A stretch of DNA of 64,000 nucleotides from Dehalococcoidia bacterium (GTDB lineage Bacteria > Chloroflexota > Dehalococcoidia > Bin125). The position numbers and the translations under genes were made by a program. Below the pieces are notes generated by a model. It worked only from the letters and a program-made list of their open reading frames with translations. It ran no database searches and had not been told where the DNA came from. Below, in pieces: positions 30,255 through 34,101 of the stretch. Position 1 is the stretch's first letter; each line of letters opens with the position of its first letter. The DNA lies in assembly GCA_965243125.1 (NCBI GenBank), contig OZ251529.1, forward strand, positions 2,452,312-2,516,311. Direction: 5' to 3'.

Positions 30255-32222
30255 ATGGCCTCGACCGACGCCGCCCTCCCGACCGACGAGCGCTACGCGC
30301 CGCCCGCCCGCGTGCGCGACGGCGCGCTGGTGCGCAGCCGCGAGGAATACGAGCGCCTCTGGCGGCGCAGCCTCGACGAGCCCGACGCCTTCTGGCGCGA
30401 GATGTCCGACGCGCTGCTCGAATGGGACGCGCCCTGGCACACCCTGGTCGAGGAAGACCTCGCCGCCGGCAAAATCGGCTGGTTCCTCGGCGGCAAGCTC
30501 AACGTCAGCGTCAACTGCCTCGACCGACACCTCGAAGCCCGCGCCGAGCAGACCGCCATCCTCTGGGAAGGCGACGAACCCGGCGAGAACCAGGCTTGGA
30601 CCTACGCCGACCTCTACGCCGAGGTCTGCCGCGTCGCCAATGAGCTGCGCGCCCGCGGCGTCGGCAAGGGCGACCGCGTCGCCATCTACATGGGCATGAC
30701 CCCCGAAGTCGTCGCCGCCATGCTCGCCTGCGCCCGCATCGGCGCGATCCACTCCGTCATCTTCGGCGGCTTCAGCGCCTCCGCCATCGCCGACCGCGTC
30801 ACCGACTCCACCTGCAAGGCGATCATCACCCAGGACGAGGGTCGGCGCGGCGGACGGACGGTGCCGCTCAAGGCCAACGTCGACGCCGCCCTCGAACATG
30901 TCGACTGCGTCGAATTCGTTCTCGTCCACCAGCACACGGGCGGCGACGTGACGATGCAGGACGGGCGCGACATCTGGTGGCACGAAACCGTCAGCCGCCA
31001 GCCCGCCGAGGCCGAACCGGAGGTGATGGACGCCGAAGACCCGCTCTTCATCCTCTACACCTCCGGCTCCACCGGTAAACCCAAAGGCGTGCTGCACACC
31101 CAGGCCGGCTACCTGCTGTTCACGATGCTCTCGCACCGCTACGTGTTCGACTACCGCGAGGGCGAGATCTACTGCTGCGCGGCGGATGTGGGCTGGATTA
31201 CGGGGCACTCGTACATCGTCTACGGCCCGCTCGGCAACGGCGCGACCTCCGTGATGTTCGAGTCGATCCCCACTTACCCCGACGCCGGGCGCTACTGGGA
31301 CATGATCGACCGGCTCGGCATCAACATCCTCTACACCGCGCCCACCGCCATCCGCGCCCTGATGCGCGAGGGCGACGAGTGGGTCAAGTCCTACGACCGG
31401 GGCTCGCTGCGCGTGCTGGGGACGGTCGGCGAGCCGATCAATCCGGAGGCCTGGCGCTGGTACTTCGATGTCGTCGGCGAGGGGCGCTGCTCAATCGTCG
31501 ATACCTACTGGCAGACGGAGACCGGCGGCCACATGCTGACCGGTCTGGCCGGCGCCAACGAGATGAAACCCGGCTCGGCGTCGCTGCCGTTCTTCGGCGT
31601 CGAACCGGTGCTGGTCGATCAGGACGGCAACGAGCTCGAGGGCAACAGCCAGGCCGGACTGCTCTGCATGGCCCGCTCCTGGCCGGGGATGATGCGCACC
31701 GTCTACGGCGACCACGAGCGCTTCATTAACACCTACTTCGTCCAGTACCCCGGCAAGTACTTCACCGGCGACGGCTCATACCGCGATCAGGACGGCTACT
31801 ACTGGCTGACCGGCCGCGTCGACGACGTGCTGAACGTGAGCGGCCACCGCCTCGGCACCGCCGAAATCGAGGGCGCGCTGGTCGGCCACTCCGGCTGCGC
31901 CGAAGCCGCCGTCGTCGGCTACCCCCACGAAATCAAGGGCGAGGGCATCTACGCCTTCGTACTGCTCAAAGACGGCTTCGATCCCGGCCCCGACCTGGCG
32001 GTCGAACTGAAGCGCGCTGTGCGAGCGGAGATCAGCCCGATCGCCACACCCGACAAACTGCAATTCGTCGGCGGCCTGCCCAAAACCCGCTCCGGCAAAA
32101 TCATGCGCCGCATCCTGCGCAAGGTCGCCGAGGGCAACCCCGACGACGTGGGCGACGTGACGACGCTGGCTGAGCCGCAGGTCGTGGAAGCGATCATCGA
32201 AGGCGCCTCCGACGCGCACTGA
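30255..32222 (+). CDS. acs: Acetyl-CoA synthetase (AMP-forming)
   Basis: 655 aa; AMP-binding motif 'YTSGSTGKPKGV', 'YWQTETGG', and C-terminal '[18 protein letters not shown]' with the acylatable Lys region. Confidence 0.95.
   Translation: MASTDAALPTDERYAPPARVRDGALVRSREEYERLWRRSLDEPDAFWREMSDALLEWDAPWHTLVEEDLAAGKIGWFLGGKLNVSVNCLDRHLEARAEQTAILWEGDEPGENQAWTYADLYAEVCRVANELRARGVGKGDRVAIYMGMTPEVVAAMLACARIGAIHSVIFGGFSASAIADRVTDSTCKAIITQDEGRRGGRTVPLKANVDAALEHVDCVEFVLVHQHTGGDVTMQDGRDIWWHETVSRQPAEAEPEVMDAEDPLFILYTSGSTGKPKGVLHTQAGYLLFTMLSHRYVFDYREGEIYCCAADVGWITGHSYIVYGPLGNGATSVMFESIPTYPDAGRYWDMIDRLGINILYTAPTAIRALMREGDEWVKSYDRGSLRVLGTVGEPINPEAWRWYFDVVGEGRCSIVDTYWQTETGGHMLTGLAGANEMKPGSASLPFFGVEPVLVDQDGNELEGNSQAGLLCMARSWPGMMRTVYGDHERFINTYFVQYPGKYFTGDGSYRDQDGYYWLTGRVDDVLNVSGHRLGTAEIEGALVGHSGCAEAAVVGYPHEIKGEGIYAFVLLKDGFDPGPDLAVELKRAVRAEISPIATPDKLQFVGGLPKTRSGKIMRRILRKVAEGNPDDVGDVTTLAEPQVVEAIIEGASDAH
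32065..32222 (+). repeat. Direct repeat copy 1 (last 158 nt of acs)
   Basis: 158 nt repeated at 33944-34101. The 10 differences are all third-codon-position and synonymous in the acs frame. Confidence 0.85.
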
Positions 32223-32297
32223 CGCCGCCGCGACAAACGATAACGTCGGTCTCTATGGTCGCGCGACATCGCCGTGCCAGAGTTTAGTCCGTGCAGG

Positions 32298-33860
32298 CTA
32301 CTCACCGACCGGGTGGCCCAATCTGCAGTAGTCCAGCAGCTCCGAGTGGTCGTCGGGTATCTGCCCTGTACGTACTGTTCCGAGCTTGCCGTTCTCCGAA
32401 TTGACAAAGTAGCGGTCGAGATACGTCTCGGCGTTGACGGAGTGGGTACGAATGTCCCAGACCGCGCACATGAACGGCACGGTGCTGTAGAGCGGCGGCG
32501 TGCGATTGACGTACAGTCGCACCGTCCACTGTGACCGCACTCTACGGATCAGAGCTTCAACGCGGCCGTCGTCCACGCGGCGCGCAGGGGACCACCACGC
32601 GGAGCGGCGCTGAAACGGGCCGCCCGCCTGCGTGGAGACGGACCAATCCAGTCTCGTCCCCGCCGCTTCCTGCTGCCGCCATCGAACCGTTATCTGCTCA
32701 AGTCCTGCTTCGACAGCGATGCCGTTCGGATCCGCCGCGCCGGGAAGCTTGTTTGGCGGCGACGAGAGCGTGCGGACAGAGATGGTCGTGGGGGGCGGCT
32801 GCGTGAAGTCGAGCCAAAACCGCTGCGCAATCTGGACATCGAACTGAGTGTCGGGAGGAAGACCGCTCATCGTCGAGGTGACGATGCCGTAGCTGGTAGC
32901 CCAGCGGTAGGCGTTGCTGACGTCCCACCAGATCACACCTGGCCACTGGGGCGACGTCGCGGTGACGAGCGCGTCGCCTTCGGCTGCCAGCCATCTCATG
33001 TGTATCGTATCGTCGGTCGCCGAGACGGTGGGCCCGAGATCGCCGCTCGACGTGCGAAATCGCTCGATGTCGGACCAACGGATCATCTCCGGCGCGTTCC
33101 AGTCGCGCCACCAGCGATCCGCGCCCTGTTCTTTCCACCAGTCCAGGCCGCTGTACCACCAGTCCAGATTGAGCCAGTCGACGTAGTGAGCGCGTTCTTC
33201 CGGTGTGCCGAGGTGCCACACCCAGGCGATCTGCCATTCGTACTCCATATCGGGTTCAAGATCCGACGCATGAGAGGGCAGGTATCGCCTAGAGCTTTGC
33301 GGTTGCGGTGGAAACGGCATCGCGTAGCTCCAGCCGGCTGAACCGATCGCCCGATAGCGGAAGATCGCCACCGCTGCAACGGAGTCTTCGCTCGTCCGTG
33401 GCTTGACTCCCCGCGGCTCAAGGCGCACGTGAAGATCGGTGTATCCGACGATCAGTTCGGCATTCGGCGGCTCGCTTTGCGGCGCGGACGCCAGCAAGAG
33501 GATGCGGCTGTTGCGGCGAGTCTCCGCGCCGTCGGCATCCAGCACGCGCAGTGGTAGCGTCGCCTGCACGTGATCCAGCAGCACGCCTTCGAGAAACTGT
33601 GAGCGGATGTCGGCGCAGGACAACTCGATCCGCTTGGCATCAGTCGTGACGGTCCCAACCCGACCGACAGTCACGGTGTAGGGCGAAGCGCCTTCGAGCT
33701 CCTCCCAACGGACATCGACCGTGCCGCCGACGCCGCACCACGGAGGGTCGAACGAAGGATCCGGCTCCGGCTGCCCCTCAGCCGTGAGCTGGGGCGCCGC
33801 AACGGCGCAGAGCAGCGCGATCAGGGCGGCGAAGGTCGAGAGGAATGCGATGCGGCGCAT
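32298..33860 (-). CDS. Secreted Trp-rich hypothetical protein (possible FN3-like repeats), encoded in a lower-GC insert
   Basis: Signal peptide [24 protein letters not shown]. About 520 aa, rich in W/D; local GC is visibly lower than the flanks. The start is chosen at the signal-peptide Met; the track ORF extends into the duplicated acs fragment. Confidence 0.55.
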
Positions 33861-33943
33861 TGGACAGGCTCCGTTCGAGGTCTTCATCAAGCTAGACGCT
33901 CGAACGGACGCAGAGGTTCCGACCTGCCTGCCACGCGACTGTC

Positions 33944-34101
33944 TCGTCGGCGGCCTGCCCAAAACCCGCTCCGGCAAAATCATGCGCCGCATCCTCCGCA
34001 AAGTCGCCGAGGGCAACCCCGACGACGTGGGCGATGTCACGACGCTGGCCGAGCCGCAGGTGGTGGAGGCGATCATCGAGGGCGCATCGGACGCGCACTG
34101 A
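33944..34101 (+). pseudogene. Displaced/duplicated 3' fragment of acs (encodes the last 51 aa plus stop), direct repeat copy 2
   Basis: Encodes the identical peptide [50 protein letters not shown] with 10 synonymous substitutions relative to 32065-32222. Confidence 0.8.

Follow-up and report, generated by a model that had tools for sequence, protein, structure and literature searches.

We wanted to understand why the 3' end of a housekeeping gene, acs, stands twice around a single secreted-protein gene in a Dehalococcoidia genome, and what kind of recombination could have placed it there. The stretch analysed, hereafter the window, comprises 64,000 nt of contig OZ251529.1 (assembly GCA_965243125.1, positions 2,452,312 to 2,516,311). 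In it, acs encodes an acetyl-CoA synthetase; its last 158 nt (repeat copy A1) recur downstream as a second copy (A2), and the gene between the two copies is called B (Table 1). The best explanation of the whole, which we regard as probably correct, is that the feature is a presence/absence polymorphism, namely an insert of one gene that begins some 12 nt beyond the stop codon of acs and is followed by an acs 3' pseudo-copy, A2. For this comparison, related loci were taken from Dehalococcoidia metagenome-assembled genomes, designated here by numbers preceded by L, and the genomic context of the relatives of B was obtained via homologues and cluster members. Two groups of strains recur below: the local group N, consisting of the window strain, L001, and L005, and the sister group O, consisting of L015, L017, L019, and L021.

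The duplicated acs end and the gene between its copies

A1 and A2 differ by 10 mismatches (93.7% identity). Read in the acs frame, every one of the 10 is a synonymous third-position change; the translations of the two copies are the same, with 51 residues and a stop. If the mismatches were placed at random, the chance of finding 10/10 of them at third positions would be (1/3)^10, about 2e-5. The preliminary description, made from the letters of the window, had reported this repeat with its purely silent differences, a segment of lower GC carrying one opposite-strand gene for a secreted Trp-rich protein between the copies, and the lack of an integrase; all three observations were confirmed. The left edge of the repeat is sharp, with no similarity upstream of it, and its right edge in the window is the TGA stop. 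In L015, the repeat extends 13 nt beyond the stop (CGCC[G/A]GCGGCGAC), where A1 and A2 differ at one base. Therefore, the duplicated unit consists of 158 nt with a further 12-13 nt beyond the stop, and the insertion point is situated about 12 nt past the acs stop. In the window, the post-stop stub is CGCCGCCGCGAC. A search for the repeat elsewhere in the genome had been proposed; it was made over the 64-kb window, where no third copy was found. The Acs protein of L001, identical to that of the window, contains the Pfam domains ACAS_N, AMP-binding, and AMP-binding_C.

We looked for recombination functions with Pfam in 50 open reading frames (ORFs) across the 64-kb window, and no integrase, transposase, or recombinase domain was found among them. 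No tRNA was found in the window, the ends of the insert carry no notable inverted repeat, and a scan for promoter and terminator consensus sequences around the insert gave nothing exceeding shuffled controls.

Between A1 and A2 lie 1,721 nt (32223-33943) with a single minus-strand ORF, that of B. Its product has a signal-peptide-like N-terminus and contains 27 Trp (5.2%). The B ORF has a GC content of 0.647 and a GC content at third codon positions (GC3) of 0.78, against an average GC3 of 0.888 +/- 0.026 for 32 other window genes and 0.91 for acs. No match to B was found in Pfam, PHROG, or PADLOC. An AlphaFold (AF2) model made with ten homologues (predicted local distance difference test, pLDDT, 68.7; predicted template modelling score, pTM, 0.54) shows an N-terminal helix followed by a nearly all-beta chain, and a Foldseek comparison of this model with the PDB returned arrays of fibronectin type III (FN3) domains with E values of about 1e-9. 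When 1.84 billion representatives were searched with a B profile, the family amounted to 25 proteins at E<=1e-30, and domain-level matches were found repeated within much longer proteins. As judged from the model and these searches, B is most likely a secreted or surface protein made of FN3-like modules and belonging to a small family. In each genome examined, the B-family genes have a GC3 of 0.76-0.79; therefore, the lower GC is a trait of the family and no mark of recent foreign origin. The ratio of non-synonymous to synonymous divergence (dN/dS) is 0.23-0.45 for B, compared to 0.06-0.08 for acs. Moreover, the B-family alleles found at the shared syntenic position in the window, L003, L004, L011-L013, and L017 encode proteins only 30-60% identical, while acs DNA is 82-97% identical. 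The B locus is hypervariable and may be under diversifying selection.

Empty sites, occupied sites, and the allele mosaic

Relatives in which nothing separates acs from the sequence found at 34102 in the window, as anticipated in the preliminary description, do exist. In L001, whose acs is 99.8% identical to that of the window, the acs stop runs directly into the sequence of window position 34102, and L005, with an acs 96.7% identical to the window, is empty likewise. The A1-B-A2 arrangement of the window is also present in the four strains of group O, whose acs genes are 96-97% identical among themselves and 93-94.5% identical to that of the window. The left junction, in which ...GACTGTC is joined to TCGTCGGCGG, is the same in all five occupied genomes, as is the right junction, and the inter-repeat segment measures 1,716-1,725 nt in each of them with only B inside. 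Since the junctions are the same in five genomes, the structure therefore arose once, and since five independent assemblies carry the arrangement, it is not an assembly artefact. No recombinase was detected in the insert of L015, L017, L019, or L021. The acs tree, ((L015,L017),(L005,(L001,W))) with W for the window, nests the window among the empty strains; L019 and L021 were placed with group O by pairwise acs identity. A degenerate 32-nt pattern of the acs 3' end gave 0 matches in the JGI metagenomes, and the Dehalococcoidia lineage of the window appears to be absent from the JGI collection scanned. Viral contigs scanned with the acs 3' pattern and with protein B gave no match.

The insert of the window resembles that of group O more than acs does: between the window and L019 it is 96.5% identical, versus 94.5% for acs, and the synonymous divergence (dS) of B between the window and L015/L017 is 0.12-0.14, whereas acs reaches 0.23-0.28 and the rhodanese gene 0.21. 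Within group O, the insert diverges faster than acs. Single-nucleotide polymorphisms (SNPs) divide the acs gene of the window into a short O-type tract at its 5' end and a long N-type tract that ends inside A1 (Table 1). A1 carries the N allele at repeat positions 1-125, but its bases at 137, 143, and 146 (A, C, C) are those of the O allele. A2 has the O allele at positions 53 and 59 and is N-like from position 68 on, with private states at 92, 95, 119, 125, and 143; from position 68 it represents a third acs allele. The points at which the alleles switch are thus different, 125-137 in A1 and 59-68 in A2. Taken together, the less diverged insert, the mosaic of the repeats, and the O-type SNPs at the 5' end of acs suggest that homologous recombination brought the insert in from a donor resembling the sister group. 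Arrival by homologous recombination had been given as a fallback in the preliminary description, and it fits the SNP mosaic.

Under this import, an O-type tract would have entered that begins at 30260 or before, includes B, and reaches about 34002, with the right crossover within the acs repeat; donor-like sequence is seen today at 30260-30389 and again from 32201 across B up to repeat position 59 of A2. The middle of acs (30390-32200) would represent the local allele, either restored in the same event or re-converted later, and the remainder of A2 the recipient's own older allele. Spread between strains would occur by homologous recombination, a mechanism that we infer from the SNP pattern, acs providing the left arm and A2, together with the adjoining flank, the right one. 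Neither an integrase, nor an att core, nor a circular intermediate would be required.

Across the sequences compared, the repeat has 23 variable positions, and the only two (2/23) that are not third-position changes are both in A2 copies: E to K in A2 of L015 and N to S in A2 of L017, the latter copy ending after 81 nt. The A2 of the window itself is still intact. Judging from these copies, A2 is not under coding selection. Within group O genomes, A1 and A2 differ at only 3-5 sites, which indicates conversion, and A2 of L021 has an N-like patch that points to conversion and recombination with functional alleles. The purely synonymous differences between A1 and A2 of the window would reflect the origin of the two copies as pieces of three acs alleles, all of them functional; such alleles diverge from one another almost exclusively by silent changes. 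The allele table therefore supports the earlier proposal that A2 came from a related acs allele and was no fresh target-site duplication.

The founding event and the competing explanations

The B gene is at home in this neighbourhood. In at least six relatives, acs is followed by one to three small tail-anchored genes, a gene of 70-79 aa, and an opposite-strand B-family gene, after which the conserved order continues with, in most cases, a DUF4238 gene, and then with a double HTH_17 gene, an ATP-grasp/CoA-ligase pair, and GmrSD. In these relatives, the B-family genes are native to the neighbourhood and lie several genes downstream of acs. At the corresponding place in the window, adjoining the DUF4238 stop, we found a 46-nt remnant of the B upstream region (Table 1), and in L003 the homologous B-upstream sequence leads straight into the same DUF4238 flank. 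Therefore, the lineage of the window lost the ancestral B and now has a B gene beside acs; the remnant can be read as the scar of the older B deletion. In L017 and L019, a B-family paralogue is still at the ancestral position.

The structure would have been founded by one duplicative illegitimate join, bringing the B upstream region to acs position -158, B-family genes normally being located further downstream. No convincing microhomology was found at the junction between the B upstream region and A2, only nearby similarity that is out of register (CGGCG, ACTG), and the junction of ...GACTGTC with the insert shares at most 1-2 nt with either parent context (acs or the B-upstream sequence of L003). 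Either of two routes could have led there, an illegitimate join between two haplotypes, facilitated by homology, or a tandem duplication followed by deletions.

The second route, taken as a full account, holds that the block from acs -158 through B was doubled in place in an ancestor with the order acs, tail-anchored genes, B, that the first block of tail-anchored genes and the second B were deleted, and that alleles were replaced later. It predicts both new junctions (B upstream region to the acs end, and the acs end plus 12 nt to the B spacer) as well as the scar of a lost B, such as the remnant at 35494-35539. It also agrees with the paralogue kept at the ancestral position in L017 and L019, and with L004 and L010, where tandem tail-anchored paralogues have acs fragments between them. 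However, three or four separate events would be needed, the paralogue kept at the ancestral position shares only about 30% identity with B, and only the founding would be covered: the excess similarity of the insert between groups and the allele mosaic would still call for homologous recombination. We regard this account as rather unlikely.

Other remnants of acs 3' ends were present among the relatives. In L010, acs[-221..-155] is fused to acs[-38..stop], and in L004, acs from about -153 to -114 is fused to the stop region; in both, flank and a tail-anchored gene follow. These two fragments have internal deletions. L002 contains a decayed acs fragment, with amino-acid changes, between B paralogues, and the junction of fragment, spacer, and B is the same as in the window. 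The boundaries of the duplicated ends differ (-158, about -153, -221), which speaks against a fixed attachment site. The remnants fit repeated displacement of old acs 3' ends. At least three independent acs-end duplications with distinct boundaries among about 18 genomes even give a hint toward a recurrent, integrase-independent 'landing pad' at the acs 3' end of this Dehalococcoidia clade, to which genes for surface or membrane proteins (B paralogues or tail-anchored proteins) would be added repeatedly, displacing older acs ends, while an A2 that conversion keeps similar to A1 would allow looping-out of the cassette and its renewed capture by relatives. If true, the locus would be comparable to an integron array, with homology in place of an integrase; we consider the idea quite unlikely.

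Could the arrangement instead be ancestral to the whole clade of N and O, lost separately in L001 and L005, whether because A1 recombined with A2 or because an empty allele was acquired, and retained in the window? On the question of ancestry in relatives, raised in the preliminary description, the findings point both ways: the four sister-group strains share the duplicated arrangement, whereas L001 and L005 are empty. An ancestral state would agree with the identical junctions in the four O strains and the window; the 158-nt direct repeats would make deletion easy, and the L001 allele equals the left part of A1 joined to the right part of A2 except at one site. Nevertheless, it demands two losses where one gain would do. 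Moreover, L001 differs from the right part of A2 and the flank of the window at 5 sites in about 70 nt but at 0 in 1,811 nt of acs, and the insert and adjacent SNPs are sister-group-like and less diverged than acs. An ancestral arrangement is thus, in our judgement, very unlikely.

The preliminary description had favoured, along with homologous recombination, a decayed integrative element, and known cases of this kind are e14 and phage 21 in Escherichia coli icd. There, insertion brings a replacement 3' end and leaves the original as the icdC fragment, with differences that are mostly silent (PMC13626634, citing Hill et al. 1989), and excision of e14 recombines both icd ends into a chimera (PMC13626634). 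Applied to our locus, the element would have carried a replacement acs 3' end as attP and entered by means of an integrase, and the integrase and all other genes would have been lost later. The layout agrees with this expectation: direct repeats are formed by the 3' end of a housekeeping enzyme gene, acs is restored, its old end is displaced, and empty sites exist in L001 and L005. An excisionase-type double-HTH gene lies 2.5 kb away and, when the window is compared with L001 alone, the alleles look as if a single reciprocal crossover had taken place in the interval from repeat position 125 to 137. A single Campbell-type crossover at this place was nevertheless dropped as a candidate because of the private SNPs past A2, the four additional occupied genomes, and the non-coincident switch points of A1 and A2, A2 being of a third allele. 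Unlike e14, a 15-kb prophage with its own integrase and excisionase and with SOS-induced site-specific excision, the insert comprises one gene of chromosomal type, and no recombinase was found for it among the window ORFs. All five occupied genomes hold B alone, and no larger form was seen. The cargo is native to the locus, with no PHROG or viral match, and is not of phage, plasmid, or integrative and conjugative element type; its low GC3 is family-wide. The HTH gene is kept in every relative, including the empty ones, and the acs remnants of L004 and L010 have other boundaries, with no fixed crossover point shared. The spread is best explained by homologous recombination, and a decayed element appears highly improbable. 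Two further candidates were rejected: an integron gene cassette, as no integrase was found in the 50 ORFs scanned and the repeat is acs coding sequence and not attC, and a transposon or insertion sequence, as neither a transposase domain nor notable terminal inverted repeats were found and the duplication measures about 170 nt where 2-14 bp of target-site duplication are expected.

A closer parallel may be found in the Rhs, contact-dependent inhibition (CDI), and type VI secretion system (T6SS) effector loci, for which displacement of 3' ends by homology-facilitated illegitimate recombination was proposed (PMC5361080). In these, a conserved upstream gene anchors the incoming DNA, new material is added beside it, the former 3' ends and the genes behind them are pushed downstream and decay, and the arrays spread by homologous recombination (PMC5361080). 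Similarly, our locus has an anchor gene and orphan 3' ends (in the window, L015, L017, L019, and L021, and also in L002, L004, and L010), a new junction without extended homology at the non-anchored end, and orphan fragments that decay in relatives. Contrary to the effector loci, the anchor is a metabolic gene with an invariant 3' protein end, no toxin or immunity function is evident, and the short arrays contain one or two orphan fragments. By analogy, the locus would work more like the 3'-end displacement of Rhs/T6SS loci than like e14 in icd. Flexible genomic islands for cell-surface structures are also exchanged through recombination in conserved flanks, and they usually replace one another without a duplicated flank. 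Our locus is like them in its divergent B alleles at one syntenic position, its surface or secreted product, its mosaic flanks, and a GC3 below that of core genes; it differs in that one flank end is duplicated and B is relocated. The feature is a known kind of recombination product and no new class of system.

If the insert is indeed a polymorphism spread by homologous recombination, the locus illustrates for uncultured Dehalococcoidia how, in nature, an accessory gene for a surface protein can be acquired with no machinery of mobile elements: a single, rare illegitimate join makes the cassette, and homologous recombination carries it across strain and near-species boundaries. It also calls for caution in annotation, since a silently differing duplicated gene end combined with lower GC mimics an integrative element and can be an allele mosaic around a locus-native gene. 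The locus may help to trace recombination and the diversification of surface proteins within the group.

Several points weigh against the reading as an imported one-gene polymorphism. The founding event is inferred from junction sequences alone, with 0-2 nt of microhomology. Past A2, 34109-34136 matches L001 while 34139, 34142, and 34149 are private to the window, so that the mosaic is not one clean tract and calls for two or more events, or for one event with a patchy outcome. A conversion from the upstream copy of the second tail-anchored gene was considered as a source of the private SNPs at 34139-34149 and rejected, as the sequences did not match. The polarity of gain versus loss is based on seven strains, and two losses of an ancestral arrangement, one in L001 and one in L005, would be a less parsimonious yet conceivable history. 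Several relatives are metagenome contigs, which may be incomplete. Finally, a recombinase from outside the 64-kb window could conceivably have acted in trans.

Neighbouring genes and further variation

The preliminary description had suggested that the tail-anchored pair, the DUF4238 gene, and the double-HTH gene form one accessory island with the insert. This did not hold, the same genes being syntenic neighbours in the empty-site strains too. Their coordinates are collected with those of the locus in Table 1.

Table 1. Features of the acs locus and its downstream neighbours (window coordinates)
Feature	Position	Strand	Description	Basis
acs	30255..32222	+	AMP-forming acetyl-CoA synthetase, 655 aa; intact functional gene, proposed left homology arm	ORF list
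O-type SNP tract	30260..30389	+	5' end of acs; SNPs 30260, 30380, 30389	window equals all four O strains; L001 and L005 share the other base
N-type acs tract	30390..32200	+	1,811 nt, 100% identical to L001; ends inside A1 between repeat positions 125 and 137	SNP comparison
A1	32065..32222	+	repeat copy 1, working acs 3' end	repeat comparison and allele table
Post-stop stub	32223..32234	+	12 nt, part of the duplicated unit, same as L019 stub	L015/L019 comparison
Insert proper	32235..33943	-	63-nt spacer (32235-32297), gene B, 83 nt of B upstream region (33861-33943)	junctions shared by the window, L015, L017, L019, L021
Gene B	32298..33860	-	520 aa, Trp-rich; signal peptide and four or five FN3-like beta-sandwich domains (predicted)	ORF, AF2, Foldseek
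A2	33944..34101	+	repeat copy 2, displaced acs 3' fragment without upstream acs reading frame	repeat comparison and allele table
Conserved neighbours	34160..37002	.	outside the insertion	Pfam; same order in empty strains and at least six relatives
Tail-anchored paralogues	34160-34504 and 34547-34945		two genes	conserved neighbours
76-aa gene	34970-35200			conserved neighbour
Remnant of B upstream region	35494..35539	+	46 nt, adjoining DUF4238 stop	34/46 identical to 33885-33930
DUF4238 gene	35562-36503	-		Pfam, conserved neighbour
2x HTH_17 gene	36535-37002	-		Pfam, conserved neighbour

The tail-anchored genes are tandem paralogues, and in front of each stands a copy of the intergenic region that follows acs (34138-34267 and 34525-34654). 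In L004 (12728-12828) and L010 (about 365-478), a deleted remnant of the acs 3' end is situated between such paralogues, which suggests that whole units of acs end, flank, and small gene were duplicated or displaced. The first tail-anchored gene gave a single weak PADLOC match (PDC-M32B, E 5e-4); the 76-aa gene and the DUF4238 gene gave none in PADLOC or PHROG. In the centre of the DUF4238 gene (35693-35900), the identity to L001 and L005 falls to about 60%, while the flanks reach 90-98%; the gene has the lowest GC3 of the region, 0.70. No full DUF4238 gene was called at that place in L001, and L013, L017, and L019 are without a DUF4238 gene. The double-HTH gene encodes 155 aa and contains an internal tandem duplication of HTH_17 (36539-36736 versus 36785-36982, 84% DNA identity), the L001 version being 112 aa long. 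It is excisionase-like and is conserved beside DUF4238 or B in all relatives, with no integrase partner.

Within acs itself, the divergence of the window and L001 from L005 peaks at 6-10% over 300 nt (31591-31890), against about 2% elsewhere; this segment looks like a recombination tract imported into the gene. Upstream, the similarity to L001 ends before window position 28464 (window about 28147-28464 versus L001 6327-8210). L001 has extra genes of 474 aa and 83 aa between the HAD hydrolase gene and a 222-aa gene, and L021 a 477-aa gene in the same place; this is a further presence/absence polymorphism nearby.

Downstream, a segment of 17.2 kb (37003-54240) is inverted with respect to the relatives examined (for instance L001, L004, L011-L013, and L015). 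There, the double-HTH gene is the immediate neighbour of the ATP-grasp_5/Succ_CoA_lig pair and GmrSD; in the window, the pair and GmrSD occupy the opposite strand at 50169-54183. The breakpoints of the inversion showed neither an inverted repeat nor a pair of paralogues. Inside it, a 34-nt inverted repeat (40623-40656 and 41768-41801, 88% complementary, rich in C/G runs, CCCCCTCTAAATCTCCCCCCACGATGGGGGGAGA) brackets an acyltransferase gene (40835-41719) and may be a repetitive extragenic element. Two adjacent paralogues of the Uma2 family (putative restriction endonucleases) are present at 45891-47176; L004 and L013 show one Uma2 gene where the locus extends that far. Finally, the GmrSD type IV restriction enzyme gene (50169-51995) has a low GC3 of 0.76.

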